DNA from: an uncultured Verrucomicrobiota bacterium
GTDB taxonomy: Bacteria > Verrucomicrobiota > Verrucomicrobiia > Limisphaerales > UBA9464
Direction of reading: 5' to 3'
Assembly (NCBI GenBank): GCA_903922605.1
Contig: CAIXUG010000086.1
Location: 3,384-67,383, forward strand
DNA: 64,000 nucleotides
The notes beneath the pieces were generated by a model. The model searched no databases. It saw only the letters and a list, made by a program, of their open reading frames with translations, and was not told the origin of the DNA. Below, in pieces: positions 27,256 through 51,851 of the stretch (positions are counted from its first letter, which is position 1; every line of letters begins with the position of its first letter). The position numbers were made by a program, and so were the translations under genes.

Positions 27256-27298
27256 ACTTTCGCGTGCCAACGGCGGCGCGTGCTCGCAAACTTCCCTC

Positions 27299-29242
27299 GT
27301 GAAACCTCCTGGAAGCCGCCCAAGCCGCCTTGTATGGCTGCTGCTATTGGCCGCCTGGTTTCCCCTGCCCGGTTTGTGGGCCGCGACCGTGACAACTGTC
27401 ACCACCAACCTTTGGTCGCTACAGCCACTCCAGCATCCGGCCATTCCGCCGGCGTCCGGTCCCAGCGAGTGGCGTAACAATCCGATTGATGCGTTTGTCG
27501 CCGACAAGCTCCGGCAACTCGGGCTGCAACCCGCTCCGCCCGCCGATCGCGGCACGCTCCTCCGACGGCTCAGCTTTGACCTGATTGGTCTGCCACCGTC
27601 GGCGGAAGAGACCGCCGCCTTCCTCCGCGACTCGCGCGGCGACGCTTACGAACGGGCCGTGGACCGCCTGTTGGCCTCCTCGCACCACGGCGAACGTTGG
27701 GCGCGCCATTGGCTGGACGTCGTGCGCTTCGGTGAATCCCAGGGTTTTGAGTACGACCGCATCCGCGAGCACGCCTGGCGGTACCGCGATTACGTGATCC
27801 AGGCCTTCAACGACGACAAGCCTTACGACCAATTCATCCGCGAACAGCTTGCTGGCGATGTGCTGCTGGAAGCAAACGCCGTGAGCGTCATCGCCACGGG
27901 TTTCCTCGTTGCCGGACCTTGGGATCAGGCCGGGCACAGTTCAGCCAGCGCGAGCGTGCGCGCGATGGTCCGCGAGGCGGAACTGGAGGACATTGTCGGC
28001 ACGGTGGCGCAGACGTTTCTGGGCGTTACGCTCAACTGCGCCCGCTGCCACAACCACAAGTTCGACCCCATCCCGCAGCGCGACTATTACCGAGTCAAAG
28101 CCGTGTTTCAGGGCGTGAACCACGGCGACCGCCATTTCCCCGGAGGCAGTACCAACGACTGGAGTTACGCGGCAAACGCCAGCCAGCCCGAGGCCACGTT
28201 CATCCTGAACCGCGGCGAGCCCGACAAACCGAAGGATCAGGTGACACCCGGGGCACTGGAGGCGCTCGCCGCCCATTCTGGCGAGCTTGGTTTGGCCGCA
28301 GATTCTCCCGAAGGCGAACGCCGCCGACGCTTCGCGGACTGGGTTGCGTCACCGGAAAACCCGCTCACCGCACGCGTCATCGTGAACCGCGTCTGGCAGC
28401 ACCATTTCGGGCGCGGGCTCGTAGCCACGCCGAACGATTTCGGGAAAATGGGCGAACCGCCTTCACATCCTGAACTGCTCGACTGGCTCTCCGCGTGGTT
28501 TGTCTCACCCGACGGCGCCAACTGGAGCCTGAAGCGGCTGCATAAGCTCATTGTCACGAGTGCCGCTTACCAGCAGTCATCAGTAATCAGTAAATCAGTG
28601 ATCAGTGAGTCGGTGACTGCCAAGCGCTCACCTGCTGGAGAACTGAATGCTGCTTCACCGATTACTGAATCACCGGCCCTCCAGCGCGATGCCGACAACC
28701 GCCTGCTTTGGCGCTTCACACCGCACCGGCTGGAAGCGGAGGAATTGCGTGACGCGCTGCTCGCACTGAGCGGCGAACTGAACCCGCAGATGGGCGGACC
28801 CGGTTTCCGTCCGTTCCGTCATGTCACCAACGGCGGCCAGAACGAATACTTCGCCTCCGATCCCGCCGGCGCGGAGTTCAACCGGCGCACCATTTACCGC
28901 ATCTCCGTACACTCCGCCCGTGATCCGCTGCTCGACTCGCTCGACTGCCCCGAATTCTCGACCCGCACACCGGTTCGTGCCAACACCACGACTCCCTTGC
29001 AGGCGTTGTCGCTGATGAACGATTCCTTTGTGCAACGGCAGGCGGCGAAGCTCGCTGAACGTGTGCAGCGCGAAGCCGGTCCAGATCTGAAATACCAGGT
29101 CGATCAGCTCTGGTTCCTCACCTTGGCCCGCGAACCGAAACCGGCGGAGCGACGCGATGCGTTGAAACTTGCCCGTGAACAGGGGATGGCGAGCGCCGCC
29201 TGGGTGCTGCTCAACTCCAACGAATTTGTCTTTGTGCGATGA
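27299..29242 (+). CDS. DUF1549/DUF1553 (PSCyt2-PSD1) protein, copy A (no large central module)
   Basis: Sec leader. Boxes [59 protein letters not shown]-terminal PSD1 boxes NRVWQHHFGRGLV...[10 protein letters not shown]...[10 protein letters not shown]. Confidence 0.9.
   Translation: MKPPGSRPSRLVWLLLLAAWFPLPGLWAATVTTVTTNLWSLQPLQHPAIPPASGPSEWRNNPIDAFVADKLRQLGLQPAPPADRGTLLRRLSFDLIGLPPSAEETAAFLRDSRGDAYERAVDRLLASSHHGERWARHWLDVVRFGESQGFEYDRIREHAWRYRDYVIQAFNDDKPYDQFIREQLAGDVLLEANAVSVIATGFLVAGPWDQAGHSSASASVRAMVREAELEDIVGTVAQTFLGVTLNCARCHNHKFDPIPQRDYYRVKAVFQGVNHGDRHFPGGSTNDWSYAANASQPEATFILNRGEPDKPKDQVTPGALEALAAHSGELGLAADSPEGERRRRFADWVASPENPLTARVIVNRVWQHHFGRGLVATPNDFGKMGEPPSHPELLDWLSAWFVSPDGANWSLKRLHKLIVTSAAYQQSSVISKSVISESVTAKRSPAGELNAASPITESPALQRDADNRLLWRFTPHRLEAEELRDALLALSGELNPQMGGPGFRPFRHVTNGGQNEYFASDPAGAEFNRRTIYRISVHSARDPLLDSLDCPEFSTRTPVRANTTTPLQALSLMNDSFVQRQAAKLAERVQREAGPDLKYQVDQLWFLTLAREPKPAERRDALKLAREQGMASAAWVLLNSNEFVFVR
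28575..28675. repeat. In-frame palindromic heptamer-lattice element, copy in DUF1553 gene A (degenerate)
   Basis: Left array tcagtaa tcagtaaa tcagtga tcagtga gtcggtga. Right arm tcaccgattactgaatcac (28655-28673) is complementary to gtgat...tcggtga (28598-28616). Encodes SSVISKSVISESV...SPITESP. Confidence 0.7.
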
Positions 29243-29739: not shown

Positions 29740-31159
29740 CCGATCTCTCAACCGCCGCCACTTCCTCTTCCGCTCCGCCTGCGGTTTCGGCGGCGTCGTG
29801 CTGGGCTGGCTGTGCGCGGAGGAGGCACGGGCGGCAGCCCTGGCTTCGCCCTATGCGCCCAAGCCGCCGATGTTTCCGGCGCGGGCCAAACGCGTCATCC
29901 ACATTTGCGCGCTCGGCGGTGTCAGCCATGTGGACACCTTTGACTACAAGCCGGAGTTGGAGCGTCGGCATGGCCAGGATTCCGGGCGCAAGTTCGACAC
30001 GTTCTTCAGCCAGCCGGGTCGACTGCTCAAAAGCCCGTTTGCCTTCCGCCAATACGGTGGCAGCGGACGCTGGGTTTCTGATTTGCTGCCCTATCTCGCG
30101 GGATGCGTGGATGACCTCACGTTCATCCACTCGATGCACAGCAAGAGTTCGAATCACACGCCGGCCACGTTCCTGATGAACTCCGGGTTCACGTTCAATG
30201 GCTTTCCCAGCGCCGGCGCCTGGGTGAGCTATGGTCTGGGCTCGGAAAACCAGAATTTGCCCGCTTACGTCGTGCTGCCCGACCCACGGCAGCTTCCGGC
30301 GGGCGGCTCCATCAATTGGACAAACGGATTCCTGCCGGCGGTGCATCAGGGCGTCGCCTTTCGCTCGGGGGAGCGGGATCCCATTCCCGATCTGGCCACA
30401 CCTTCCGACATCTCCCCTGCCCGCCGCGAAGCCAGCGTGCACCTGCTCGAGAAACTCAATGCCGCCGATGCTGCGGCCCACCCCGGTGACTCCGCCCTGG
30501 CCGCGCGCATCCGGGCCTACGAACTCGCCGCCCAGATGCAGCTCCGCGTGCCGGAATTGGTGGAACTTTCCCGCGAGACGGCCGCCACCAAATCGGCCTA
30601 CGGCCTCGACCATCCCAATGCGGCCACGGCGGGTTTTGCGCGCAACTGCTTGCTTGCGCGGCGGCTCAGCGAACGGGGGGTGCGTTTTGTGCAGATTTTC
30701 AACGGCGGCCAGTTCGGCTCCCCGCGCATCAACTGGGACGGCCACGAGGACATCGTGGAAAACCACCGCAAGCAGGCCCTGACCATGGACCAGCCGGTGG
30801 CCGCCCTGCTGCGCGACCTCAAGCAGCGCGGTCTGCTCGACGAGACCGTGGTGCTGTGGACGACCGAGTTTGGTCGCACGCCGATCACTCAGGGCATCGA
30901 TGGCAAAGGGCGCGATCACCACCAGCATGGCTTCACGATCTGGGCCGCCGGCGCGGGCCTGCAGCCTGGCCTGGCCTTCGGAGCAACGGATGAAATCGGC
31001 TACGACGCGGTCGAGAACCCGGTGGAATTCTACGACGTCCACGCCACCCTGCTCCGGTTGCTGGGCGTCGAGCACACGAAGCTCGTCTTCCGCCACAACG
31101 GCGTGGATCGCCGGCTCACCGACGTACACGGCGAAGTGGTCCAAGGAATTCTCGCATGA
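29732..31159 (+). CDS. DUF1501 protein (alkaline-phosphatase/sulfatase-superfamily-like), TAT leader, copy A
   Basis: From ATG 29732. Leader LNRRHFLFRSACGFGG. Boxes GGVSHVDTFDYKP, FIHSMHSKSSNHTPA, WTTEFGRTP, GRDHH. C-terminus [16 protein letters not shown]. Confidence 0.9.
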   Translation: MLSRSLNRRHFLFRSACGFGGVVLGWLCAEEARAAALASPYAPKPPMFPARAKRVIHICALGGVSHVDTFDYKPELERRHGQDSGRKFDTFFSQPGRLLKSPFAFRQYGGSGRWVSDLLPYLAGCVDDLTFIHSMHSKSSNHTPATFLMNSGFTFNGFPSAGAWVSYGLGSENQNLPAYVVLPDPRQLPAGGSINWTNGFLPAVHQGVAFRSGERDPIPDLATPSDISPARREASVHLLEKLNAADAAAHPGDSALAARIRAYELAAQMQLRVPELVELSRETAATKSAYGLDHPNAATAGFARNCLLARRLSERGVRFVQIFNGGQFGSPRINWDGHEDIVENHRKQALTMDQPVAALLRDLKQRGLLDETVVLWTTEFGRTPITQGIDGKGRDHHQHGFTIWAAGAGLQPGLAFGATDEIGYDAVENPVEFYDVHATLLRLLGVEHTKLVFRHNGVDRRLTDVHGEVVQGILA

Positions 31160-33849
31160 AGTGGAGTGCGCGCATGCTGGGAATGCTGTTGCTGGTGATC
31201 AGCGCGGTTTCAGCCTGCGCCGACGTCTCGACGAATGCTGACCACTGGGCCTATCGACCGCTCGCCGCCCCCCCGGTTCCAGACTTTCCGGCTGGTTCCC
31301 GGCCTTCGACGAATCCCGTCGATTCGTTCATCGCGGCGAAGCTCGCCGAACACGGTCTGACGCCGGCTCCCGAGGCCGACCGCCGCACGTTGTTGCGCCG
31401 GGTCAGCTTCGATCTCATCGGTCTGCCGCCGACACCGGAGGAACTTCGCGCCTTCCTGGCCGACACCTCCACCAATGCCTACGAGCGGGTCGTGGATCGC
31501 CTGCTCGCCTCGCCGCGTTATGGCGAGCGCTGGGCGAGGCATTGGATGGACGCCGCGCACTTCGCCGAGACTCACGGCCACGATCAGGACCGCATCCGCA
31601 CCAACGCATGGCCCTATCGCGACTACCTCATCGCCTCGTTCAACGACGACAAACCTTACACCCGCTTTGTGCGGGAACAGGTCGCTGGCGATGTGCTGTT
31701 TCCGGCCGATCCTCAAGCCACGGTAGCGCTCGGCTTCATTGCCGCCGGTCCGTGGGACGAAAGCTCCCTGCGCGACATCCGCGAAGACACCCTCGACCGC
31801 CAGGTCGCCCGCTATCTGGACCGTGACGACATGCTGACGACCGTCATGCAGACATTTGCCAGCACGACGGTCCAATGCGCACGCTGCCACGACCACAAGT
31901 TCGATCCGGTTTCCCAACGGGATTACTACGCGCTGCAGGCGGTGTTCGCCGGTGTGGACCGTGCCAACCGCGTGTTTGACGCCGACCCGCAGGTCCATGT
32001 CCGCCGGCAGGACCTCATGCGCAAGCGTCGCCGCGTGAAGCAAAACGACCGGGCGTTGCTGCTTTCGGCGGAAACCTCGCGTGCGGTCACGGAATGGGAG
32101 GAGCGCCGCGCCGCACACCCGGTCACCTGGTCAACGGTCGACGCTCAGACCTTCGTCTCGGTCGGCGGCGCGACGCTGACGAAACAGGCCGACGGTTCCC
32201 TGCTCGCCATCGGCACGCGGCCCGACCGTGATACGTACACAATCTCTGCGCGTTCCCCGCTGGCGGGGATTACCGGCATCCGCCTCGAAGTCCTGCCCGA
32301 TGCCAGCCTGCCGCACCAGGGACCGGGGCGTAACGAAAACGGCAACTTCCACCTCAGCGAGTTTCAGCTGCTCACGTTCGAGCCGGGTGCCAAAGCCGCG
32401 CGCGAAATTCCGCTGGCAAATCCCAGTGCCGATTTCGACCAGCAGGACTGGGGCATCGCCCGTGCGCTGGATGGCGACGAGAAGACGGCCTGGGGCATCC
32501 ACCCGCGCGAGGGGGAGGCCCATCAGGCGGTGTTCGAGCTGAAGGAACCGCTCGCCCTGCCTCCCGGCACGACGCTGGTGTTCGTGCTCAAGCAACTGCA
32601 CGGTGAAGGCCACCTGATTGGCCGCCCAAGACTGGCTGTCACCGATGCCCGCACTTCCCTGCGGGTGCTGCCAACGGAACTAACGGCGATTGTCGCCCTC
32701 CCCATTGCCCAGCGAACCGACGACCAGCGGGCGTTGCTCGCCGCAGACGTTCTCGGCGAACGCATCCGCCTTGACCTCGCCGCGTTACCACCGCCCTCGC
32801 TCGTCTATGCCGCTGCCAACGACTTCGAGCCCGATGCCAGCCTCAAGCCCTCGGGTGTTCCGCGCGTGGTGAATCTGTTGAAACGGGGCGAGATCACGAA
32901 GCCGATGGAGGTGATTTCTCCGGGCACCCTGTCGTGTGTGACAGCGCTCCCCGCACGCTTCGAACTCGCCGACCCGGCCGATGAAGGCGCTCGCCGGGCC
33001 GCCCTCGCAAGCTGGCTGACCGCCAAGGAGAATCCGCTGACCTGGCGCTCCATCGTGAACCGCGTCTGGCATCACCACTTTGGACGGGGGCTGGTGGACA
33101 CGCCGAACGACTTCGGCCGGATGGGCGGCACCCCGTCGCATCCTGAGCTGCTCGACTGGCTGGCCGTCTGGTTCCGCGACGATGCGAAAGGCTCCTTCAA
33201 GGAACTCCACCGCCTCCTCGTGACCAGCGCCACCTACCGTCAATCTGCCACCGTCGTAAATCGTAAATCCGAAATCGTAAATCCTCCCGACCCAGGGAAC
33301 CGCTTCCTTGCGCACATGAACCGCATCCGCCTCGACGCCGAGTGCGTCCACGATGCCGTGTTGCAGGTCAGCGGTCGGCTTGACCTGCACATGGGGGGGC
33401 CGAGCGACCGGCAGTTTGATTTGCAGCCCGGTATCCACGTCACTCCACGGGTGGACTACACCAAATTCGAGGTGGATGGCGATGCGGGTCGGCGTCGCAG
33501 TGTCTATCGCTTCCTCTTTCGTACCCTGCCCGACCCCTTCATGGAGGCGCTCGACTGTCCCGCCGGCGACCAGCTCACCCCCGCGCGCAACAACTCCGTG
33601 ACCGTCCAGCAGGCGCTCGCGCTGTGGAACAACGCGTTTGTCGCCCGCAACGCCGAACACTTCGCCGCCCGCCTGGAGCGCGAAGCGCAAACGCCTGAAG
33701 CACGGATTCGACGTGCTTTCGAACTCGTTTTTGGTCGCGAGGCCTCGGCGGAGGAACTGACCGAGTTCACCGGGCACACCCGGCAATACGGTTTGGCGAA
33801 CTGCTGCCGACTATTGTTCAATGCCAACGAGTTCGTCTTCGTCAACTGA
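31156..33849 (+). CDS. DUF1549/DUF1553 (PSCyt2-PSD1) protein, copy B, with central ~175-aa module
   Basis: Sec leader. [51 protein letters not shown]. Central GITGIRLEVLPDASLPHQGPGRNENGNFHLSEF module. C-terminal LFNANEFVFVN. Confidence 0.9.
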   Translation: MKWSARMLGMLLLVISAVSACADVSTNADHWAYRPLAAPPVPDFPAGSRPSTNPVDSFIAAKLAEHGLTPAPEADRRTLLRRVSFDLIGLPPTPEELRAFLADTSTNAYERVVDRLLASPRYGERWARHWMDAAHFAETHGHDQDRIRTNAWPYRDYLIASFNDDKPYTRFVREQVAGDVLFPADPQATVALGFIAAGPWDESSLRDIREDTLDRQVARYLDRDDMLTTVMQTFASTTVQCARCHDHKFDPVSQRDYYALQAVFAGVDRANRVFDADPQVHVRRQDLMRKRRRVKQNDRALLLSAETSRAVTEWEERRAAHPVTWSTVDAQTFVSVGGATLTKQADGSLLAIGTRPDRDTYTISARSPLAGITGIRLEVLPDASLPHQGPGRNENGNFHLSEFQLLTFEPGAKAAREIPLANPSADFDQQDWGIARALDGDEKTAWGIHPREGEAHQAVFELKEPLALPPGTTLVFVLKQLHGEGHLIGRPRLAVTDARTSLRVLPTELTAIVALPIAQRTDDQRALLAADVLGERIRLDLAALPPPSLVYAAANDFEPDASLKPSGVPRVVNLLKRGEITKPMEVISPGTLSCVTALPARFELADPADEGARRAALASWLTAKENPLTWRSIVNRVWHHHFGRGLVDTPNDFGRMGGTPSHPELLDWLAVWFRDDAKGSFKELHRLLVTSATYRQSATVVNRKSEIVNPPDPGNRFLAHMNRIRLDAECVHDAVLQVSGRLDLHMGGPSDRQFDLQPGIHVTPRVDYTKFEVDGDAGRRRSVYRFLFRTLPDPFMEALDCPAGDQLTPARNNSVTVQQALALWNNAFVARNAEHFAARLEREAQTPEARIRRAFELVFGREASAEELTEFTGHTRQYGLANCCRLLFNANEFVFVN
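33254..33284 (+). repeat. Direct heptamer array tcgtaaa/tcgtaaa/tccgaaa/tcgtaaa in DUF1553 gene B
   Basis: Four consecutive 7-nt units at 33254-33281, read in frame as VVNRKSEIVN. Same linker position (just after TSATYRQS) as the palindromes in A, C and D. Confidence 0.8.
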
Positions 33850-33863
33850 ACCTCCAGCCTGCC

Positions 33864-35318
33864 ATGCGCCCCTTTCACTCCGCCTTCCCTTCGCGCCGCG
33901 AATTCCTCTGGCGTTTCGGCGGTGGGCTGGGCGGTGCGGCACTCGCTCAGATGCTCGGGACGAACCGCCTATTGGCGTCGGACGCTGCGGTCCACTCGAC
34001 ACAAGGTATCCTGAGCGGAGGGCTACACCATGCCCCGCGGGCGAAGCGCGTCATCCAGCTCTTCATGAATGGCGGCGCGAGCCAGATGGACCTGTTCGAC
34101 TACAAGCCGGCGCTGTTTCGCCGCGCCGGCGAGGCCTTCAATCCCGGTGCGGGCGAACACGTCGAGGCTCCGACCAGTGAGCCCGGCAAGGTGCTCAAGC
34201 CGCCCTTCGAATTCCGCCAGCATGGGCAGTCCGGTCGCTGGGTGAGCAGTCTGCTGCCGCACCTCGCGGGCTGCGTGGACGACCTCGCCTTCCTCATGGC
34301 GATGCAGTCGCGGACGAACGTCCACGGTCCGGGCAGCTACCTGATGAACACGGGATTCCTGCTGCCGGGCTTCCCCTGCCTCGGGGCCTGGGTGAGCTAC
34401 GCGTTGGGCAGCGAGTGCGACAACCTGCCGACCTTCGTGGTGCTGCCGGACACCAAGGGACTGCCCTACAACCAAAAGGGCAACTTCAGCGCCGGTTTCC
34501 TGCCGGTCGCGAACCAGGGCACCATCATCCAGACCGCTTCAGCGACACCCATCGCCGACCTGCGTCCGCCTGCTTCCGCCGGCTACATCACACCCGAGGC
34601 GGACCGCGCAGGACTGGACCTGCTGCGCCAGCTGAACCGCCAGCATCTCGCCGCGAACGACGGCGATGCACGGCTCGAGGGGCGCATCCAGTCGTACGAG
34701 CTCGCTGCAAAGATGCAGCTCAGCGCGCCGGAGGTCTTCGCACTCGACGGCGAGACCGAGGCCACGCGTCAGCTCTACGGTCTCGGCGAAAAGACGACCG
34801 AGGATTTCGGCCGCCGCTGCCTGCTCGCACGGCGACTGGTTGAGCGCGGCGTGCGTTTTGTGCAGGTGTGGAGCGGTGCCGGCGGCCCGACCAACAACTG
34901 GGACAACCACGCCAACATCGAAAAGGAGCTTCCTCCGATGTGCGCCGCCACGGACCGGCCCATCGCCGCCTTGCTCAAGGATCTCAAGGCCCGGGGTCTG
35001 CTCGATGACACCCTTGTGCTGTGGACGACCGAGTTCGGCCGGATGCCCTTCTCGCAAAGCGGCAGCGGACGCGACCACAACGGGGGTACCTTTGTCGGCT
35101 GGATGGCGGGAGGCGGCGTGAAACCCGGCGTGGCCTACGGTGAAAGCGACGAATGGTCGTGGAAGGCCGCCCACAACCCGGCCACGAACTACGATTTCCA
35201 CGCCACGGTCCTGCACCTGTTGGGTCTCGACCATGCCCGGCTTACCTTTCGCCATGACGGATCCAACCGCCGTCTCACCGACGTGCATGGCGAAGTCATT
35301 CACGAAATTGTCACATGA
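33864..35318 (+). CDS. DUF1501 protein, TAT leader, copy B
   Basis: Leader SRREFLWRFGGGLGG. GGASQMDLFDYKP, WTTEFGRMP, GRDHN. C-terminus [16 protein letters not shown]. Confidence 0.9.
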   Translation: MRPFHSAFPSRREFLWRFGGGLGGAALAQMLGTNRLLASDAAVHSTQGILSGGLHHAPRAKRVIQLFMNGGASQMDLFDYKPALFRRAGEAFNPGAGEHVEAPTSEPGKVLKPPFEFRQHGQSGRWVSSLLPHLAGCVDDLAFLMAMQSRTNVHGPGSYLMNTGFLLPGFPCLGAWVSYALGSECDNLPTFVVLPDTKGLPYNQKGNFSAGFLPVANQGTIIQTASATPIADLRPPASAGYITPEADRAGLDLLRQLNRQHLAANDGDARLEGRIQSYELAAKMQLSAPEVFALDGETEATRQLYGLGEKTTEDFGRRCLLARRLVERGVRFVQVWSGAGGPTNNWDNHANIEKELPPMCAATDRPIAALLKDLKARGLLDDTLVLWTTEFGRMPFSQSGSGRDHNGGTFVGWMAGGGVKPGVAYGESDEWSWKAAHNPATNYDFHATVLHLLGLDHARLTFRHDGSNRRLTDVHGEVIHEIVT

Positions 35319-35767
35319 AAACTGTCCTCCCGCTCCTTGCCTGCGCCCTGCTGGCCGTCGGCTGCCGTCATCTGACACCGGCATGGCAGATCGATTCCGG
35401 GGCCGAGGTCCGCGCCGTGATCGACCAGCAGCTGGCAGACTGGAACGCCGGCGACATCAACGGCTTCATGCGCGGCTACTCAAAGTCCTCCTCGACGCGC
35501 TTTGCCTCGGGCGACGACGTGACGCGCGGCTGGCGGACTGTGTTTGACCGTTACGTGGCCCACTACGGCAATCGCGCCGCGATGGGCAAGCTGACGTTCT
35601 CGGAATTGGAAATCACCCCGCTCTCGGCGGAGAGCATCGAGGTCTTCGGCCACTGGCGGCTGGAACGCGAAAAGGATTCGCCGCACGGCCTCTTCACGCT
35701 GCTGTTTCGCAGGACGGCGAGTGGCTGGCGGATCGTCCACGATCACACGTCCGCGGCAACGCCATGA
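35315..35767 (+). CDS. Small lipoprotein, DUF4440/SnoaL-like (NTF2 fold) candidate
   Basis: Lipobox LLAVGC. AVIDQQLADWNAGDINGFMRGY...FGHWRLERE...FTLLFRRTASGWRIVHDHTS resembles the NTF2-like DUF4440 pattern. ATGA overlaps at both ends. Confidence 0.65.
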   Translation: MKTVLPLLACALLAVGCRHLTPAWQIDSGAEVRAVIDQQLADWNAGDINGFMRGYSKSSSTRFASGDDVTRGWRTVFDRYVAHYGNRAAMGKLTFSELEITPLSAESIEVFGHWRLEREKDSPHGLFTLLFRRTASGWRIVHDHTSAATP

Positions 35768-38343
35768 AGTGGCGGCTGAACATCATCCTGCTGACGGTCA
35801 CAACCGCCGCCCGGTTGCTCGCGGCTGATGCCACCAATCATTGGTCTTTCCAGCCGGTCGTCCGCCCTGCCCTGCCGATGGCGGTAGCTGGAACCATCAA
35901 TCCGATTGATCGGTTCATCCAGGCAAAGCTGGCCGAGCAGCATCTGACACCCGCGCCCGAAGCCGACCGGCGCACGCTGATCCGGCGCGTTTCGTTCGAC
36001 CTCATCGGCTTGCCGCCGACGCCGGAAGAGGCTGATGCCTTCGTCCGCGACCTACGACCGGACGCATACGAGCGGTTGGTGGACCGGTTGCTAGATTCGC
36101 CTCACTTTGGGGAACGCTGGGCGCGGCACTGGCTGGATGTGGTGCGTTTTGCGGAAACGCACGGGTTCGAGATGAACAATCCGCGGCCCAATGCGTGGCC
36201 CTATCGCGATTACGTTATCCGCGCCTTCAACGACGACAAACCTTACGACCAGTTCGTCCGCGAGCAGCTCGCTGGCGATGTTCTGGGGGCGGACGAGGCG
36301 ACGGGGTTTCTCGTCGCAGGCGCCTGGGATCAGGTGAAAAGCCCCGACGAAGTGCTGACCAAGAATCAACGGGCCGACGAACTGCACGACATGGTGAGCG
36401 TCACGGGCAGCGCCTTTCTCGGGCTGACCGTCGGGTGTGCGCGCTGCCACGATCACAAGTTCGACCCGATCCCGCAGCATGACTACTACGCGCTCAAGGC
36501 CGTCTTCGAGGGCGTGCAGCATGGGGAACGCGAGCGACGCGTGAATGAAAACGGAACCCGCGAGGACGAGCTGAAGCAGATCCGCTCGCGCCTCTCGGAA
36601 ATCGACTCGGCGCTCGTCCGCTTCGAGCCGCTGGCCCAGGTCGGAATGGTGGACACGAACCGCCTGCGCGCGCCCGTTCATCCTCGCCGCAACGTGGAAC
36701 GCTTTGCCCCGATTTTGGCGAAGCGACTGCGTTTCACCATTCTGGCCACGACCGGGGCGGAGCCCTGCGTCGACGAACTCGAGGCCTTCAGCGTCGGAGC
36801 CGGTGCCACGAATGTCGCGCTGGCAAGCTTCGGCACGAAAGCGACCGCTTCCGGCACCTATCCCAACTCCAACCTGCACCGGCTGGAACACCTCAATGAC
36901 GGGCGCTACGGCAACAGCCGAAGCTGGATTTCCAGCGAGAATGGCAAGGGCTGGGTCGAGCTGGAATTTCCGCAAAGTGTCCTTCTTGAACGTGTCGTCT
37001 GGGCCCGGGATCGCGAAGAGAAGTTCGGGGACCGGCTGGCCACGGAGTATCGCTTCGAAGTGGCTGACGAAGCGGGCGATTGGCGCACCGTTGCGTCCTC
37101 GGCGGACCGCCGGCCATTTCAACCAGGCCAGCCCTATGAGCCGGACCTTCGTTCACCCGATGCCACGATGGCCGAGGCGAGGCGGCTTCGCAGCCTGCTG
37201 GACGAGCAAAAGCAACTGACCGTGCGGATTCACGAATTGGCCGACCGGCCCATGGTTTATGCCGGAGATTTCCGGCAACCGGAAGTGACGCGCCGTTTCC
37301 AGCGCGGTGATCCCATGCAGCCGCGCGAAGAGGTGGCCCCGGGGGCGTTGACACGAATCGTGCGGTTAGGAGCTGCGGCCGATCAAAGCGTCCTGACTTC
37401 GACGGCCACGGAGGAGCAGCGGCGGCGATTGGCGCTCGCCGACTGGATCATCAGCCCGACCAACCCGCTGACGGCGCGCGTCATCGTGAACCGGCTGTGG
37501 CAGCATCATTTCGCGGAGGGGCTGGTCAGCACTCCCAGCGATTTCGGCGTGAACGGCGCCCGCCCGACGCATCCCGAGCTGCTCGACTGGCTGGCGGCGG
37601 AGCTGGTTTCCCACGGCTGGAGCCTCAAGCACATCCACCGCCTGATCGTGACCAGCGCCACGTACCGGCAGAGGTCGGTGATCAGTGAATCAGTAAACGG
37701 TGAATCAGTGATCAGTAAGACAGCCAACACGTCGCGCACCGCCAAACTGAAAACTGATTCACTGGTTACTGATTCACTGGCGCTACAGCGCGATGCAGGC
37801 AACCGACTCCTCTGGCGCTACCCCGCGCACCGGCTGGAGGCCGAACCAATTCGCGATGCGATGCTGGCAGTATCCGGCCGGCTCGATTTGCGCATGGGCG
37901 GACCCGGTTGGTCGCCCTTCGTGCCGAATGAGAACTATGTGCGCGTGTACGTGCCCAAGGACGACTATGGCCCCGATGATTTCCGCCGGATGATCTATGC
38001 CACCGTTGTGCGGCAGCGGCCCGATGGCGTGTTCGGCGCGTTCGACTGCCCCGATGGCGGACAGATCGCTCCCAAGCGTACCCGTAGCACCACGCCACTT
38101 CAGGCGCTCAACCTCCTGAACAGCGGTTTCATCCAGCAAGCTGCCAGCCTGTTTGCCGGACATCTATCTGCGAATGCCGGGGACGCTCCAGAGGCCCAGG
38201 CTCGGGAGGCGTTTCGGTTGGCCTTCCAGCGCGAACCGTCGGCCGATGAGCTGCAGGCCTCGGTCCGGTTCATCGGTGAAGAAAGCCTGTCGCTTTTCTG
38301 CCGCGCTTTGCTGAACAGCAACGAATTCGTCTTCGTCTTCTGA
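35764..38343 (+). CDS. DUF1549/DUF1553 (PSCyt2-PSD1) protein, copy C, with central discoidin (F5/8 type C)-like module
   Basis: Sec leader. [51 protein letters not shown]. Central [21 protein letters not shown]...[27 protein letters not shown]-terminal [11 protein letters not shown]. Confidence 0.9.
37675..37780. repeat. In-frame palindromic heptamer-lattice element, copy in DUF1553 gene C (best preserved)
   Basis: Arm 37683-37716 (cagtgaatcagtaaacggtgaatcagtgatcagt) versus the reverse complement of 37746-37779 (cagtgaatcagtaaccagtgaatcagttttcagt): 30/34 identical by hand alignment, 29-nt spacer. Confidence 0.85.
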
Positions 38344-38351
38344 CCGTCCTC

Positions 38352-39830
38352 ATGCCCGATCGCCCCCTTAGCAACGCCGGCCGCTGGCTTCTGAACCGCC
38401 GTGATTTTCTGCGTCATGGCGGCACCGGGCTGGGCGGCATTGCGCTGGCGACGCTGCTGGCCGAGCAGCGGTTGCTGGCAGCCAAGGAGCCGATCCGCCC
38501 CGACTGGTCACCTCAACAGCCAAACGCGCCCCGCCCGCCGCACTTCACGCCGAAAGCAAAGAACATCCTCGTGATCTTCTGTTCCGGGGCGCTGAGCCAT
38601 CTCGACACCTGGGATTACAAGCCCGAGCTGGTCCGTCGCCATGGCGAGCCGTTGCCGGGCAATGAGAAGCTCATCACTTTCCAGGGTGAACAGGGCGCGC
38701 TCACGCGGCCGCTCTGGGAGTTCCGTCCGCGTGGCCAGAGCGGCAAGATGATTTCCGATCTTCTGCCGAACCTCGCGGAACTGGCCGACGATCTGTGCTT
38801 CATCCATTCGATGACCGCCAAGTCCAACACACACGGCCCGGCGGAGAACCAGATGAGCACGGGCTTTACGCTCGACGGCTTTCCCAGCATGGGTGCTTGG
38901 GCGAGCTATGCGCTGGGCACCGAGAATCAGAATCTGCCAGCATTCGTGGCCATTCCTGATCCGCGGGGCGTGCCGCAGATGGGGCCGAACCACTGGAACT
39001 CCGCATTTCTGCCGGCGGTGTTTCAGGGGGTGGCTTTTAACGCAGACCAGCCCATCCCCAACCTCGCCACTCCCAAGGGCATCACGCCGCAGTCCGAACG
39101 CAGCACGCGCGACTTCCTACGGTTTCTCAACGACAAGCACCTGGAACAGCACCCCGGCGACACGGAGCTGAGCGCCCGCATCGCGAGCTATGAGCTGGCC
39201 GCCAGGATGCAACTGAGCGCGGCAGAGGTAGGCGATTTCACGAAGGAGTCGCCAGCCACGCTGGAGTCTTATGGCATGAGCGATGCGAATCCGCTGAAAT
39301 CGCGCTTTGCCAAGAATTGCGTGCTCGCACGGCGGTTGGTGGAACGTGGGGTGCGCTTCGTGCAGCTTTTCAACGGCAGTTACGCGATGGGAGAAGGTGT
39401 CGGCAACTGGGACGGGCACAAAACGCTCAAAGAGCAGTATAGTGTCCATGCGCCCATCCTCGACCAACCCGCTGCCGCCCTGCTGCGTGATCTGAAAGCG
39501 CGCGGCCTGATGGAGAGCACGCTGGTCGCCTTCGTGACCGAGTTTGGCCGGATGCCCACCTTCCAGAAAGGGGCTCAGGGTCGCGACCACAACCCGCACG
39601 GTTTCACCGTTTGGCTCACCGGTGCGGGCGTGAAGCAAGGCTTCAGTCACGGCGCCACGGATGACTTCGGCCACAAGGCAGTCACCGATGTCTGCACCAT
39701 CTATGACCTGCACGCGACCCTGTTGCACCTGCTCGGCCTGGATCATGAGCGGCTGACCTTTTATCACAACGGCACCGAGCGCCGCCTCACCGACGTGCAT
39801 GGTGAAGTAATTGACGATATCCTGGCGTAA
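38352..39830 (+). CDS. DUF1501 protein, TAT leader, copy C
   Basis: Leader [44 protein letters not shown]-terminus [16 protein letters not shown]. Confidence 0.9.
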
Positions 39831-39956
39831 GCGATGGGTCCGACGGCGTTTGTTCCTGCGCCCTCAGGGCAACCACGCCAAACTTGTGTAAGGTCGGCAG
39901 GCTTAAACCGACCCATTTCACGTTGCACCGCTTTCTTCACTGAGTTTGCGTCCGTC

Positions 39957-41201
39957 ATGCCCGCCATGCGCGCCATTCGCCGCCGGTTGTCCCTATGGCT
40001 CTTTGCTGGAGTCGTCCTTATCGCCGTTTCCGCCTGGCTGCGTCCTCGTCTGCGTCAGGCCACGACCGTCAACACCGCTCTGGCGGCGGACAGTGTGGAC
40101 GATATGGCGTTGCGCGAGGCGACCGAAGGCCGTCCGTTGCCTTCGGAATTGGTCGAACGTTTTTGGGGTACGCAAAGGCTGCCTCATCGGCGGGCCGCCA
40201 TGAGTGCGCTGGTCTCCCGGGGCCCGGATGACACGGGGCTGGCAGGGCTATGGGATCGGCTGCTGCCGTCGGCGGCGCTGGATCCGGATTACGAGATCCG
40301 CTCACGCGCGTTGGGCGGGCTGCAATCCCCAGTCCATCCCGACCAGTTGGCTCCGGTCGTCTGGCAATTGGCCGATGCGGATCCCGAACTGCGTCAACTG
40401 GGTCTCCAGCATCTGCGCCGGTTGGGTGGGCTGGCACAGTCGCCGCTCGTGCTGCCATTGCTGAACGATCCGGATACTTCGGTGGCCTTGTACGCCGATT
40501 CGGTGCTCCGGCAGTGGAGCGGGCGAGATTCTGGCCTGCGGATGTCCCTTGTCCTGCCGGCACGATCGAGTCTGGTGGCCGAACCGGTTGCGCAGGAGAA
40601 AATGCTCGCCATCAGGCAAGCGTCGGAACAGTGGCGGGAATGGTGGCGCACACAGGAGAAATCTGCGGGCGTAGAAGGGGCCGTGCCTTCACCGCTTCCG
40701 CCGGCGACCCAAAGCCTCCCCTGCCCGCAAATCAAACTGCCGGACCTGCACGGGAACGTGGTGAATGTGGCCAGCCTTAAGGGCAAACTCGTGCTGCTGA
40801 ATTTCTGGACTACCTGGTGCCCAGGCTGCCTGGTCGAACTGCCGTTGCTCGTGGAATTGCAGCGGCGGCATCCGGACGACCTGGTGATCCTCGGAATCAG
40901 CCTCGATTCGCCGGAGCAGGGAGTGCTGGCGGATGCCCCGACGAAGGCGACTGAATCTGCTCCGCCAGATGCCGGTCAGGTCCGAAAGATAGTCGGAGCG
41001 GTCGCCGGCCGGCAGCACCTGAACTATCGAGTGCTCCTGGACCCGGAGAATCGGATCGGACGGCAGTTCAATGGCGGAGAACTGCCCACGAATGTGCTGT
41101 TGGACCGCGACGGGCGCGTGCGGCGGAGGTTCGTTGGCGAACGATCGGTGGAAGTTTGGGAAGCCCTTCTGCGCGACGCAGACCGACCGGCAAGTCGTTG
41201 A
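39957..41201 (+). CDS. Membrane-anchored HEAT-repeat + TlpA/ResA-type thioredoxin (thiol:disulfide oxidoreductase)
   Basis: From ATG 39957 (MPAMRAIRRRLSLWLFAGVVLIAVSAWL). HEAT-like repeats (DPDYEIRSRALGGL, DADPELRQLGLQHL, NDPDTSVALYADSVL). Redoxin core GKLVLLNFWTTWCPGCLVELP. Confidence 0.8.
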   Translation: MPAMRAIRRRLSLWLFAGVVLIAVSAWLRPRLRQATTVNTALAADSVDDMALREATEGRPLPSELVERFWGTQRLPHRRAAMSALVSRGPDDTGLAGLWDRLLPSAALDPDYEIRSRALGGLQSPVHPDQLAPVVWQLADADPELRQLGLQHLRRLGGLAQSPLVLPLLNDPDTSVALYADSVLRQWSGRDSGLRMSLVLPARSSLVAEPVAQEKMLAIRQASEQWREWWRTQEKSAGVEGAVPSPLPPATQSLPCPQIKLPDLHGNVVNVASLKGKLVLLNFWTTWCPGCLVELPLLVELQRRHPDDLVILGISLDSPEQGVLADAPTKATESAPPDAGQVRKIVGAVAGRQHLNYRVLLDPENRIGRQFNGGELPTNVLLDRDGRVRRRFVGERSVEVWEALLRDADRPASR

Positions 41202-41331
41202 GGTTGAAAGCGCCCGTGGGTGTTTGCGCGTCACCTACAGCTGCAGGCGCGGATTTTTCGAACCTTCGCCCAGTCAGGGGATGACGGGAGGGTTTGAAGC
41301 CGTTTACTTTCGACGCGTCATAGCCCCGTTC

Positions 41332-44136
41332 ATGCATCCGCATTTTAGCTCCCCCGCCCTTCGCTGGCTCAGGCCGGTTTGGGTGGCCGCTTGCTTCTGG
41401 CTGTTGGGAGTCAGGTTGCAGGGGGGCGAGGCGAAGTCGCGCATGGATGACTTCGACTGGTGGTCGCTGAGGCCCGTCCTACGACCGTCATTGCCCCATC
41501 TGCAGAATCCCGCTCTGGCCGCGCGTGTGCGCAATCCGGTTGACCGCTTCATTTTTGCGCGACTGGAGCATGAAGGTCTCACCCCTTCACCCGAAGCGGA
41601 TCGGCGCACATTGATCCGACGGCTTTACTTCGATCTGATCGGCCTGCCTCCCGCGCCGGAAGTGGCGGATACCTTCGTGAACGATCCGGCCAACGATGCT
41701 TATGAGAGGCTGGTTGACCGACTGCTGGAATCCCCGCAGTACGGGGAACGTTGGGCGCGTCACTGGCTCGACGTGGTGCATTACGGAGAGACGCACGGCT
41801 ACGACAAGGACCAGCCCCGGCCCAATGCCTGGCCCTATCGCGATTACGTCATCCGCGCGTTTAACTCGGACAAACCGTACTGGCGCTTTGTGCAGGAGCA
41901 GGTCGCCGGCGACGCGCTCTGGCCGGACACCACGGATGGCGTCACAGCGCTGGGCTTTATTGCGGCCGGCCCATGGGACTTCATCGGGCACGTCGAGGTT
42001 CCGGAGACCAAGACGGATGGCAAGATTGCCCGCCTGCTGGACCGTGACGACATGGTGGGAAACGTGATGAACACGTTTTGCAGCACCACCATCCAGTGTG
42101 CGCGGTGTCACAATCACAAGTTCGACCCGATCACGTCGGAAGATTATTACCGGCTGACCGCCGTGTTTGCGGCGCTGGACCGGGCGGACAAGCGCTTTGA
42201 CAGCGACCCGGTGGTCGCCCGCAATCGGGCTTCGCTCGAAACCCAGCAGCAGGCGCTAAAATCCAAGGTGAAAGAGCTGGAAAACAAGCTAACCGGAATG
42301 GGCGGACGACACTTGGAGCTGATTGACCACCTGCTTACCGACCTGCGTGCCGGTTCCAACCCCACCGCGCGGCCTGAGTTCGGCTGGCACAGCCAGATCG
42401 AAGCGCGACAGGATGCCGTCAAATGGGTCCAGATCGACTTGGGTGCTCCGATTCCGTTGGAACGGATCGTTTGCGCGGCCTGCCACGACGACTTCAACGG
42501 CATCGGCGACGGTTTTGGTTTCCCATTGCGCTTCCGCGTTGAAGCGTCGGATGACTCGACGTTCGTAACCGGCGTTTCACTGCTGGAAGATCAGACGAGT
42601 GCCGATGTACCCAACCCCGGTGTCACCCCGCGCGAACTGCGGGCGGCAGGAGTGCGGGCGCGCTATGTGCGCATCACCGCGACGAAGCTCGCGCCCCGGC
42701 AGAATGACTTCATTTTCGCGCTTGCCGAGCTTCAGGTCCTGGACGCCGATGGTCGCAATCTGGCGTTGGGAGCGGACGTGACGGCGAGCGATAGCATCGA
42801 AGCCGAACCCCGCTGGGGTCGGCGCAATCTGACAGACGGATATTTCTTCGGCTTCACCAAGACGGCGGTTGCACCGTCTCCCTCCCTGCTGGAGGCACAG
42901 AGAAAGGATCTGCTCGCGCATCTCACGGATGACGGCACGCGAGAAGGTTTGGAAGACACCCGGGCCGAGCTGAATCGAGTGGAGGCCAGCTTGGCCAAGC
43001 TGCCGCCCACGCAGGTTGTCTATGCTGGCACCATCCACCATGGCAGCGGGTCGTTTCGCGGCACGGGGCCGGACGGCGGCAGACCGCGCCCCATCTTCGT
43101 GCTGAACCGCGGCGACGTGAACAAGCCGACTACAGAGGTCACCGCAGGCACGGTGCGCTTCCTGGGCGACGACGGGGTTTTCGGGGTGCCCAACGACGCG
43201 CCCGAAAGCGCACGGCGAATCGCCCTGGCCAAGTGGCTGACCGATCCACGCAACCCGCTGACCTGGCGATCCATCGTGAACCGGGTCTGGGAGTACCACT
43301 TTGGCCGCGCGTTGGCGGACTCACCGAACGACTTCGGGCGCATGGGCCAGAAGCCGTCGCATCCCGAACTGCTGGACTGGCTGGCGGTGGAGTTTCGCGA
43401 TGGCGGCCAGTCCCTGAAGACGCTGCATCGACTGCTGGTGACAAGCAGCACCTACCGGCAGGTTTCAGTAATCAGTGATTCAGTGAACAGTAAGTCAGTG
43501 AAAAGCGGACGCTTGCCTGCCGAAGGACTGATTACTGATTCACTGATTACTGAATCACTGAACCCGGCTCAGCAGCGCGACGCTGACAACCGGCTGCTTT
43601 GGCGCATGAACCGGCGCAAGCTGGAAGCGGAGGCCATCCGGGACAGCGTGCTCTGGGTGGCGGGCAAACTGGACCCGGCCATGGGCGGTCCCAGTTTTCA
43701 GGATTTTGTGGTCGAACGGCCCGAGCATTCGCCTCACTACGAGTATCGCCTGCACGATCCTGAGAACCCGAAATCGCAACGTCGCTCCATCTATCGTTTC
43801 ATCGTGCGTTCCCAGCCGCAGCCGTTCATGAGCACGCTGGATTGCGCCGACCCCTCCATGACGGTGGATCGCCGGAACGAGACGCTGAACGCACTTCAGG
43901 CACTGGCCCTGCTTAACAACCAGCTCACCGTCGCCATGTCCCGGCATTTCGCGGAACGCGTGGAGACCAAGGATGGCTCCGCCGAAGCCGCCGTAACGCG
44001 TGCATTCCGGCTAGCACTCGCCCGTTCCCCCAGTGCGACCGAGCTCAACTCCCTTTCCGATTTTGCCCGCCAGAATGGCCTCATCAACACCTGCCGGGTG
44101 ATCCTGAACCTCAACGAATTTGCCTTTGTGGACTGA
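41332..44136 (+). CDS. DUF1549/DUF1553 (PSCyt2-PSD1) protein, copy D, with central discoidin-like module
   Basis: Start at ATG 41332 (or 41281) gives a hydrophobic leader. [51 protein letters not shown]. Central VKWVQIDLGAPIPLERIV...RYVRITATKLAPRQNDFIFALAELQV. C-terminal ILNLNEFAFVD. Confidence 0.85.
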   Translation: MHPHFSSPALRWLRPVWVAACFWLLGVRLQGGEAKSRMDDFDWWSLRPVLRPSLPHLQNPALAARVRNPVDRFIFARLEHEGLTPSPEADRRTLIRRLYFDLIGLPPAPEVADTFVNDPANDAYERLVDRLLESPQYGERWARHWLDVVHYGETHGYDKDQPRPNAWPYRDYVIRAFNSDKPYWRFVQEQVAGDALWPDTTDGVTALGFIAAGPWDFIGHVEVPETKTDGKIARLLDRDDMVGNVMNTFCSTTIQCARCHNHKFDPITSEDYYRLTAVFAALDRADKRFDSDPVVARNRASLETQQQALKSKVKELENKLTGMGGRHLELIDHLLTDLRAGSNPTARPEFGWHSQIEARQDAVKWVQIDLGAPIPLERIVCAACHDDFNGIGDGFGFPLRFRVEASDDSTFVTGVSLLEDQTSADVPNPGVTPRELRAAGVRARYVRITATKLAPRQNDFIFALAELQVLDADGRNLALGADVTASDSIEAEPRWGRRNLTDGYFFGFTKTAVAPSPSLLEAQRKDLLAHLTDDGTREGLEDTRAELNRVEASLAKLPPTQVVYAGTIHHGSGSFRGTGPDGGRPRPIFVLNRGDVNKPTTEVTAGTVRFLGDDGVFGVPNDAPESARRIALAKWLTDPRNPLTWRSIVNRVWEYHFGRALADSPNDFGRMGQKPSHPELLDWLAVEFRDGGQSLKTLHRLLVTSSTYRQVSVISDSVNSKSVKSGRLPAEGLITDSLITESLNPAQQRDADNRLLWRMNRRKLEAEAIRDSVLWVAGKLDPAMGGPSFQDFVVERPEHSPHYEYRLHDPENPKSQRRSIYRFIVRSQPQPFMSTLDCADPSMTVDRRNETLNALQALALLNNQLTVAMSRHFAERVETKDGSAEAAVTRAFRLALARSPSATELNSLSDFARQNGLINTCRVILNLNEFAFVD
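43465..43562. repeat. In-frame palindromic heptamer-lattice element, copy in DUF1553 gene D
   Basis: Left 43465-43491 (tcagtaatcagtgattcagtgaacagt) versus the reverse complement of 43527-43553 (tcagtaatcagtgaatcagtaatcagt): 24/27 identical in the best register found. Confidence 0.85.
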
Positions 44137-44164
44137 GCCGCAGGCTCGGCAGGAACACAACTCC

Positions 44165-50870: not shown

Positions 50871-51851
50871 TCAGCTTGGCCCGCGCCGTTCGGCAAGACC
50901 GGTCAGTACGCGACAAACAGCCTCCAGTCGCGGCACCGGAACACCGGCGGCGCGGGCTTGGCGCAGCGGCTCCAGAATCAGGCTCTCCACCTCCAGCACC
51001 GATCCCCGTTCAAAATCAATCAGGGTGGAGGCCAGGTAGCGCCCCATGGTCTGGGTGCGTTCAATTTCGGCCTCGGCGTAGCCCGGCTCGATATTGTGCC
51101 CCAACGCGTTGGCGGCGGCGATCACCTCCTGCATCAGCTCCCGAACCAGCGCGGCCCAGCGGGTGTCGCTTAGAAGCGCGTCCGTGGCTAGAACCGGGGC
51201 GGGGAATTGCGAATTCCGAATTTCAAATTTCGAATCGGTCAGCGCTTCGTAGCCGACCACTCCCGCCACCCCCAATCCGTTGAAGGGGATGTTCCAAACG
51301 AGTTTGAGCCAGTGGGCGCGAGCCAGATTGTCGGCCACCTGACAAGGAATCCCCGCGTGCCGGAACAATGTGGCTAGGTCGTGTGTCCTTGGCTCCGGCC
51401 AGCGCTGAAATTCACCAAACAGGATGCGTCCGCCATCGATGTGGCGCACCACGCCGGGAGCGATCCGGTTAAGGGAGACGAAACACAGGCCGCCCAGGAT
51501 CTGTTCCACGGGGAACAATTTGGCCAGCGCCTCCTCGTTGCCGAGGCCGTTTTGCAGCGTGAGGATGGCTGTTGTCGGCCCGACGAGCGCAGGCAGCAAT
51601 CTTGGAAACTCGGCATTCGCCGTCGTCTTCAACCCGATGAGCACCAGGTCGCAAGGCCCGATCTCGTCGGCGGTGCGGGCGCAGCGGGGACGCACGCGAA
51701 ATGCCTCCGTGTCGCCGCAGACCTCGATCCCCTGCCGGCGCACCTGCTCGTAATCCGAACGCAGCAGAAAATGGGTTGCGTGGCCATCCCGGCAGAGCTT
51801 TGCCCCGTAATAGCTGCCCAGCGCACCAGTGCCGACAATGGCGATTTTCAT
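50871..51851 (-). CDS. panE: 2-dehydropantoate 2-reductase (ketopantoate reductase)
   Basis: MKIAIVGTGALGSYYGAKL Rossmann start. LQNGLGNEE and KLVWNIPFNGL boxes of the ApbA/PanE family. C-terminal ExD-type box (TLIDFERG). Confidence 0.8.
   Translation of the reverse strand: MKIAIVGTGALGSYYGAKLCRDGHATHFLLRSDYEQVRRQGIEVCGDTEAFRVRPRCARTADEIGPCDLVLIGLKTTANAEFPRLLPALVGPTTAILTLQNGLGNEEALAKLFPVEQILGGLCFVSLNRIAPGVVRHIDGGRILFGEFQRWPEPRTHDLATLFRHAGIPCQVADNLARAHWLKLVWNIPFNGLGVAGVVGYEALTDSKFEIRNSQFPAPVLATDALLSDTRWAALVRELMQEVIAAANALGHNIEPGYAEAEIERTQTMGRYLASTLIDFERGSVLEVESLILEPLRQARAAGVPVPRLEAVCRVLTGLAERRGPS
51204..51238 (-). repeat. Five-unit heptamer array (gaattgc gaattcc gaatttc aaatttc gaatcgg) inside panE
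   Basis: AT-rich 35-nt block in a GC-rich gene, read in frame on the minus strand as TDSKFEIRNSQF. Confidence 0.75.

Follow-up and report, generated by a model that had tools for sequence, protein, structure and literature searches.

We analysed a 64-kb stretch of DNA (the window; 64,000 nt of contig CAIXUG010000086.1, assembly GCA_903922605.1) from an uncultured Verrucomicrobiota bacterium of the UBA9464 lineage. It carries four genes, here called A to D, which all match both PF07583 and PF07587, and a DUF1501 gene comes next after each of them. In gene C, the two Pfam matches score 298 and 294 bits, respectively, both above the gathering score. This gene contains a 105-bp segment, element C, that forms a long inverted repeat and is translated in frame within the linker of the PSD1 domain. 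Here we describe element C as one copy of a dispersed, hairpin-forming repeat, found in frame in several unrelated genes and outside genes in several phyla.

Structure and reading frame of element C

Element C has two 34-nt arms (37683-37716 and 37746-37779) that are complementary at 30 of 34 positions (88%) with 29 nt between them, exactly as an original prediction made from the DNA letters had described. Its picture of AT-rich arms inside a GC-rich gene also held, the left and right arms having 41% and 38% GC, compared to 62% in the spacer and 63-64% in gene C. When positions 37670-37790 were folded as RNA, the predicted stability was -55.3 kcal/mol, compared to -28.9 +/- 3.2 kcal/mol for 200 dinucleotide shuffles (z -8.3), and none of the 200 shuffles was as stable. 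The proposed comparison with shuffled controls thus came out strongly in favor of the hairpin. The 12-mer CAGTGAATCAGT, allowing at most one mismatch, occurs 8 times in the window, where 0.13 occurrences are expected. Element C matches no known RNA family in Rfam; an E-value scan of window positions 27000-45000 gave only a sub-threshold, miRNA-like match, to a second copy, element D (see below). An intrinsic terminator inside gene C was rejected, since the stem is AT-rich and the sequence after it, GGCGCTACAGCGCG, contains no T run to supply a U tract. We also rejected an assembly artefact, because the element is found in frame at orthologous sites of independent assemblies, with sequence divergence.

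The element had been placed between two conserved boxes of the PSD1 domain. Its position in the linker between TSATYRQ and DAGNRLLWR stands, while the residues LQR, which had been counted as part of the second box, lie outside it. The family-wide box reads D-A-x-N-R-L-L-W-R, and QR precedes it in 0 of 222 homologues, compared to its presence directly before DAxNRLLWR in elements A, C and D of the window.

The arms had been read as tandem TCAGTRA-type units of 7 nt. Units of this type are present, but a plain 7-nt array is not what the DNA contains: units of 7 and 8 nt alternate, which gives a true period of 15 nt, the length of five codons (Table 1). The canonical 15-mer of this coding variant, TCAGTAATCAGTGAA, is translated as SVISE, and its complement as SLITD. 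Since the reverse complement of TCAGTGA, TCACTGA, is almost the same sequence, the two arms share one codon register, read as TCA GTG ATC AGT GAA in the left arm and TCA CTG ATT ACT GAT in the right arm. The expectation that only the frame of gene C tolerates the element was confirmed. This is the single open frame on the plus strand; in the other two, TGA stops the reading within 2-4 codons once the left arm is entered, and does so a second time in the right arm. On the minus strand, too, a single frame is open, and its translation is a peptide of the same kind. A pure 7- or 8-nt array passes through every frame in turn and therefore encounters its own TGA, whereas the 15-nt period holds the TGA out of frame permanently, making this the only coding-compatible arrangement. 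The 7+8-nt variant, open in one frame per strand, can therefore survive inside genes at tolerant loops or linkers.

Table 1. Repeat elements and related features in the 64-kb window
Feature	Position	Strand	Description
Gene C	35764..38343	+	PSCyt2 (DUF1549) + PSD1 (DUF1553), 859 amino acids
Element C, left unit array	37675..37719	+	three 15-nt units, each 7+8 nt: TCGGTGA TCAGTGAA / TCAGTAA ACGGTGAA / TCAGTGA TCAGTAAG
Element C, loop/spacer	37720..37745	+	translates as TANTSRTAK; 29-nt spacer at 37717-37745, 62% GC
Element C, right unit array	37746..37780	+	ACTGAAAACTGATTC ACTGGTTACTGATTC ACTGG
Element A	28574..28676	+	same hairpin kind, in the linker of paralogue A (27299-29242) homologous to that of gene C
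Element D	43461..43562	+	same hairpin kind, in the linker of paralogue D (41071-44136) homologous to that of gene C
(TCGTAAA)x4	33254..33283	+	in frame (VVNRKSEIVN), same PSD1 linker, paralogue B (31156-33849)
(GAATTYC)x5	51204..51235	-	in frame (SKFEIRNSQF), ketopantoate reductase (ApbA) gene 50871-51851
(AASTCCG)x4	62026-62052		5' end / N-terminal extension of ParA/MinD-like ATPase gene (61241-62122, -)

Elements A, C and D occupy the same site, between TSxxYxQ and DAxNRLLWR, in the same frame, and the four longest short-range inverted repeats of the entire window all lie within them. Element D has 28-nt arms that are 86-89% complementary and fold at -47.4 kcal/mol (z -7.0). The right arm of element A has decayed, leaving 78% complementarity and a fold of z -2.0. 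In gene B, the TCGTAAA array at this linker is accompanied neither by an inverted arm nor by a stable fold (z +0.8). The PSD1 paralogues of the window share 44-53% amino-acid identity, A and D being 47-49% identical to C, and their sequences indicate that paralogues A-D are old.

Copies in other genomes

A degenerate pattern of two arms, CAGTRAWTCAGTRA-N35-65-ACTGAWTYAC, which is independent of the PSD1 flanks, was run against 596 Gb of species-representative genomes, and the matching loci were inspected as 8-kb stretches. The pattern matched 78 loci, compared to about 4 expected by chance on a uniform-composition estimate; about 5 of the 78 look like chance matches, two Pseudomonas loci among them. 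Further copies, for which the original prediction had recommended a search, thus exist both in the window (three) and in public genomes, and at least 12 loci of the class lie in a single metagenome-assembled genome (MAG). The copies share their termini, GAGTAATCAGT...ACTGATTACTC.

In about 40 copies, no frame can be read through the element. These copies occupy short gaps between genes, consist mostly of pure 8-mers, and were found in Verrucomicrobiota, Chloroflexota (Caldilineales), Acidobacteriota, Planctomycetota, Betaproteobacteria and Bacteroidota. Approximately 26 of 42 non-coding copies start no more than about 35 nt from the stop codon of the upstream gene, or overlap that stop codon. 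A position just after a stop codon is classic for hairpins that resemble repetitive extragenic palindromic (REP) sequences or terminators. A viral contig, the only one matched (L161:5614-5681, IMGVR_UViG_3300037067_023461), also carries a genuine hairpin of the class, of the 8-mer type (GTGATTCA), which might point to a vector of horizontal transfer.

Roughly 30 copies are read in frame within long open reading frames (ORFs), nearly all of them in Verrucomicrobiota, and the reading is always ..VISxSVIS...LITDSLITD... Within the PSCyt2-PSD1 family, the hosts carry the element at the PSD1 linker or at the PSCyt2 N-terminus, between HWAF..P and NPIDAF, and some genes have two copies, one at each hot spot. 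The unrelated hosts include leucyl-tRNA synthetase, with the element where the editing domain starts; CysJ-like flavoproteins of two MAGs, where by Pfam coordinates it falls exactly between the flavodoxin and FAD-binding domains; and a molybdopterin oxidoreductase, where, again by Pfam coordinates, it falls between the two domains. A Ser/Thr kinase and DUF7133 proteins are further hosts. Four contigs are labelled as MAGs of Bifidobacteriaceae/Bifidobacterium (L044, L050, L077) or Acidoferrum (L009); these encode PSCyt2, PSD1 or DUF7133 proteins at 58-63% GC and are probably misbinned Verrucomicrobiota DNA, so that the taxonomic spread of in-frame copies is narrower than the labels suggest.

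Unit spacing differs between the two settings. In arrays within ORFs of at least 250 amino acids, adjacent spacings alternate between 7 and 8 nt in 167 of 208 cases (80%), with 8-8 found 13 times (6%) and 7-7 found 28 times (13%). In non-coding arrays, by comparison, 8-8 predominates (153/256, 60%) over 7/8 alternation (83, 32%) and 7-7 (20, 8%). Some arrays are unbalanced or very long: a copy inside a PSCyt2 gene (L066:1265-1383) has 5 SLITD units on the right and 2-3 units on the left, and two others (L072:6745-6915 and L002:2283-2417) have 15-17 consecutive 8-mers on one arm. These arrays indicate that the arms expand independently, by slippage.

Gain of the insert and constraint on its host gene

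Among the 124 closest homologues of the PSD1 domain of gene C (61-88% identity outside the linker), the linker is exactly 11 residues long in 112. P0121, the nearest of them at 88% identity, has a linker of 15 residues that lacks a hairpin peptide; since its neighbors follow the order of the window (PSD1, a 492-amino-acid DUF1501 protein, HEAT/AhpC), it is a syntenic orthologue. A scan of metagenomes for orthologues of gene C gave none above 67% identity, and the C-like genes that it yielded were reused as an unbiased sample of linkers, of which 44 of 53 had 11 residues. By contrast, contig L005 of a Verrucomicrobia MAG, orthologous to the window at 87-89% nucleotide identity, carries elements C and D at the same sites. 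The orthologue comparison that had been suggested thus gave a divided answer: the insert is lacking in P0121 and most homologues and present in L005. As judged from these alignments, the element in gene C is a gained insert and not an ancestral part of the gene.

Between the window and L005, the ratio of nonsynonymous to synonymous divergence (dN/dS) in gene C is 0.08 upstream of the insert, 0.07 downstream of it and 0.61 inside it. Purifying selection acts on gene C to either side of the element, and translation must therefore read through it, while the insert peptide is nearly unconstrained. The loop is the part of element C that diverges fastest between orthologues. In element D, by our own count, 10 of 39 residues differ between orthologues, where the DNA is 93% identical. 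The Ser, Thr and Val codons that dominate the element (TCA, AGT, ACT and GTA) each account for 4-7% of the respective codon family in host genes, and this use of the rarest codons of the host points to an origin at the nucleotide level. In an AlphaFold2 model of the domain, the predicted local distance difference test (pLDDT) score averages 75; the insert residues, 97-129, are coil with pLDDT below 50, and the flanking helices reach 92-94. The insert is thus predicted to form a disordered loop between two PSD1 helices.

The inserts of the three paralogues have more in common than the repeat units. A and D have homologous loops (KRSPAGEL and GRLPAEGL, with RRSPTGEL in the D orthologue), and an SVN second unit is common to C and D. 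Together with the shared QR flank, these features argue for a common origin of the three inserts, as a segment embedded in PSD1. Most probably, we infer from the sequences, gene conversion carried the insert and its flank from one PSD1 paralogue to another, with the conserved YRQ and DAxNRLLWR boxes as anchors. A single ancestral insertion was rejected, as the nearest homologues of C have no insert, and three independent site-specific transpositions are less likely than conversion, given the shared QR flank and the loop homology.

In other lineages, this PSD1 linker also holds hairpins of unrelated sequence. One has arms of GCGGAAT units (L077:4638-4721, NAELGMRNAE..IPHSALRAPHS), and two are plain GC-rich in-frame hairpins (L080:1053-1169 and L081:1786-1902, AADVSRL..SLLTSAAT), the second of which contains a nested (CCGAAAT)x4 array in its loop. 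Their presence indicates that the site is permissive. Separately, the PSD1 fragments P0017, P0099, P0001, P0061 and P0094 carry low-complexity peptides between LLDWLAxEF and WSLKxLHRL, about 25 residues upstream of the linker. These resemble translated palindromes (IEDRGSNIE..RFSIFDPRSS; GVEVWRCGGVEV..NLHTSTPPHLQT), and there may be a second PSD1 insertion hot spot upstream of the linker.

Several observations concern the surroundings of these genes. Positions 27299-45679 of the window hold four successive PSCyt2-PSD1 and DUF1501 pairs on one strand, a local tandem expansion of the family. Between the DUF1501 gene that follows C and gene D, at 39834-41201, lies a HEAT + AhpC/redoxin gene, which is missing from the orthologous region of L005 and present beside P0121, the orthologue without the insert. 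Gene D, as annotated from 41071, overlaps this gene by about 130 nt, and the true start of gene D is probably further downstream. Elsewhere in the window, the GAATTYC array sits between the N- and C-terminal Pfam domains of ketopantoate reductase and has no inverted arm, and the AASTCCG array lies upstream of the AAA_31 domain of the ParA/MinD-like ATPase.

Origin of the element and likeness to known repeats

We favor the view that element C is a selfish repeat, similar in behavior to the Rickettsia palindromic elements (RPEs), that is tolerated in a permissive loop of a live gene, and we consider this view probable. The element is multicopy and restricted in frame, it is absent from close homologues, and its relaxed peptide, predicted to be disordered, interrupts a gene under purifying selection. 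We found neither conservation of the peptide alone, nor a genome devoid of other copies, nor a stability equal to that of shuffled sequence, each of which the original prediction had named as evidence against an element. Element C would then be one copy of a dispersed hairpin-forming repeat made of arrays of CAGTRA-type units with their complement on the other arm. Members of the class would normally follow closely on a stop codon, in several phyla and mostly as arrays of pure 8-nt units, and the Verrucomicrobiota 7+8-nt variant would survive in genes where a surface loop or an inter-domain linker tolerates 25-40 extra residues. In gene C, it would yield a disordered loop rich in Ser, Val, Ile, Thr and Asp between PSD1 helices, with no demonstrable benefit to the host. 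Unit number would shift by slippage in 15-nt steps, arm complementarity would erode by ordinary substitution, and the insert with its flank would have spread among A, C and D by gene conversion.

Several points weigh against this view. We infer the mobility of the element from its distribution only, as no mobilizing gene was identified in the 8-kb stretches, and no target-site duplications (direct repeats) were seen at the junctions of 31 in-frame copies. By our tally, roughly two thirds of the in-frame copies are at the two sites of the PSCyt2-PSD1 family; this concentration exceeds what tolerance alone predicts, so that targeting or a family-specific benefit is possible. Translation of the insert is itself deduced from the constraint on its flanks. 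The taxonomic labels of MAGs are unreliable, some matches being clearly misbinned, and the comparison with the empty site of P0121 was made at the protein level, which makes the insertion boundaries approximate. Synonymous divergence is 0.19 in the insert compared to 0.41-0.79 in the flanks, a difference resting on 9 substitutions. Finally, element C and its orthologue differ by a 15-nt indel, one unit, on each arm, with pairing kept. Such symmetric indels could reflect selection for the stem. They could also come from two independent slippage events, given that the arms of L066 and L072 slip independently, and a single template-switch correction at a quasi-palindrome could also yield a symmetric change of the arms.

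There is also a broader proposal, which we advance tentatively and regard as rather doubtful: that CAGT-unit hairpins are an undescribed class of horizontally spreading miniature elements linking the TAACTGA and cyanobacterial STRR (short tandemly repeated repetitive) heptamers with the RPEs, two phenomena considered apart until now, and that their 7+8-nt variant in Verrucomicrobiota is adapted to genes and settles preferentially at two loops of PSCyt2-PSD1, a greatly expanded family, either through targeting or because the hairpins serve as anchors for recombination between paralogues.

It is unlikely, in our judgment, that the hairpin is a selected mRNA structure, such as a site where ribosomes pause at the boundary of a domain, a determinant for RNase III or for stability, or a block to 3'-exonucleases, and kept in PSD1 genes for that reason. 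The great stability of the stem (z -8.3), its location at a domain-internal linker, the recurrence of unrelated hairpins at this linker, the symmetric 15-nt indels and the lower synonymous divergence in the insert would all suit such a role. However, pairing is lost while the gene is kept: in addition to the decay of copy A (78%, z -2.0), the element D orthologue has three pair-breaking changes, and in the orthologues of both C and D the fold weakens to a z of about -3.2. If the sense RNA were under selection, G:U should be enriched among stem mismatches, so the absence of an excess counts against selected pairing; on the sense strand of 31 coding copies, G:U was found 39 times and A:C 31 times (p = 0.40), even though the stem scoring slightly favored G:U. 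In addition, 83-90% of close homologues are without any insert, and the same element occurs in unrelated proteins, in either strand relative to the loop. The functional mRNA hairpin offered by the original prediction is thus left without support; on evidence that is mostly negative, the hairpin appears to be a property of the element rather than a selected mRNA structure.

We hold it equally improbable that each copy arose locally, by heptamer slippage at a seed within native codons (CGG-CAG-TCN, encoding part of YRQS) followed by template switching at a quasi-palindrome, which turns a copy of the array into the inverted arm. CAGTC does lie within the native codons that follow YRQ, and tandem heptamers of many unit types occur in this genome and its relatives (TCGTAAA, GAATTYC, and AASTCCG at 62026). 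The uneven expansion of arrays in L066, L072 and L002 and the lack of target-site duplications fit as well. In contrast, one 15-mer consensus (CAGTAATCAGTGAAT) recurs in unrelated genes and genomes, which argues for copying from existing elements, and the common termini together with the loop and flank features shared by A, C and D also count against local origin.

A protein-level function, in which the S-V-I-S-E and S-L-I-T-D repeats are a selected linker or interaction arm and the palindromy is a by-product, is very improbable. Both arms encode similar pentapeptides in the same register, and the insert stays in frame in orthologues, but the peptide evolves several-fold faster than its flanks (dN/dS 0.61 compared to 0.07-0.08; 10 of 39 residues in element D), uses the rarest host codons and is predicted to be disordered, most homologues do without it, and the same DNA is found untranslated in intergenic regions. 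The slippage-prone frameshift (phase-variation) switch that had also been suggested, by analogy with contingency loci, can hardly be upheld: 7-nt-type tandem units do lie inside an ORF and the alternative frames soon end in TGA, but the units are imperfect and alternate between 7 and 8 nt in a 15-nt repeat, the only orthologue length difference is 15 nt per arm and in frame, the three window copies and about 30 others are all in frame, and the frame-shifting changes in unit number that define contingency loci were not found in element C.

If element C is an RPE-like selfish repeat, it would provide an independent second system of in-frame palindromes in functional genes, hitherto regarded as peculiar to Rickettsia, in free-living Verrucomicrobiota with large genomes and with dozens of examples, including an aminoacyl-tRNA synthetase. 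The alternation of 7 and 8 nt offers a visible rule for how a repeat can be compatible with coding, and the element connects to the cross-phylum TAACTGA/STRR repeats, whose spread has no known vector. The concentration of in-frame copies at two loops of the PSCyt2-PSD1 family is striking. In practice, such inserts inflate and fragment DUF1553 and DUF1549 alignments and add low-complexity 'SVIS...LITD' peptides to protein databases. They may also seed recombination between paralogues.

Our literature search on tandem-heptamer hairpins in Verrucomicrobia, in-frame palindromes and DUF1553 found no description of the element, and we therefore compared it with known repeat classes. Bacterial MITEs (miniature transposable elements with inverted repeats), such as Correia/NEMIS, ERIC, BOX and Nezha, are small non-autonomous inverted repeats that occasionally give in-frame ORF fusions (PMC10969869). 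A classical MITE was rejected: there is no target-site duplication, and the arms are arrays of variable unit number instead of fixed terminal inverted repeats. REP and REPIN sequences, mobilized by RAYT transposases, are short multicopy hairpins located after the 3' ends of genes, without target-site duplications; REPs are extragenic by definition, lack tandem units and have GTAG or CGTC heads (PMC3116915, PMC3733652). The present class shares with them the multicopy short hairpins, but only its non-coding members follow stop codons. We rejected a REP element because the window copies are intragenic. As to a head, the units are CAGT[GA]A; certain variants from Chloroflexota (CAGTAGAT) do contain GTAG, although it does not form a well-defined head at the terminus.

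The link to cyanobacterial STRR heptamers drawn in the original prediction proved apt, the nearest published relative being the TAACTGA heptamer repeat (PMC4679880). In Beggiatoaceae, Cyanobacteria and Bacteroidetes, TAACTGA repeats consist of exact heptamers in direct array, for which no secondary structure is predicted (MacGregor 2015, PMC4679880); they lie mostly a few nucleotides upstream of start codons and are patchily distributed across phyla with no known vector (PMC4679880). Our class has a near-identical unit (TTACTGA/TCACTGA) and a similarly patchy cross-phylum spread without a known vector. In both, stop codons limit the coding frame and orientation, and translation gives LITD.. 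or ..SVIS.. peptides. In contrast to TAACTGA repeats, the units TCAGTRA/TYACTGA are one base off and 8 or 7+8 nt long, the arrays are inverted and form strong predicted hairpins, and the non-coding copies abut upstream stop codons, while many copies are internal to ORFs.

The resemblance to RPEs, also put forward in the original prediction, holds in multicopy status, a single open frame, unrelated hosts, a disordered loop and a live host gene. As a review describes them, RPEs are dispersed palindromes found in frame in unrelated genes, housekeeping genes included, and translated while the host protein remains functional (Ogata 2000, 2002, in PMC10969869). They have lengths of about 100-150 bp and family-specific sequences, and are described only in Rickettsia (PMC10969869); this 2024 MITE review treats a similar mechanism in other prokaryotes as merely conceivable. 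Like RPEs, the present element has a stable hairpin, in-frame copies in unrelated functional genes, and loops compatible with the protein fold. Unlike them, it has arms of tandem 7/8-nt units with a 15-nt period, a Verrucomicrobiota host, and intergenic relatives at the 3' ends of genes. From this comparison, we would class the element as RPE-like in behavior rather than as an RPE, set apart by host phylum, architecture and intergenic relatives.

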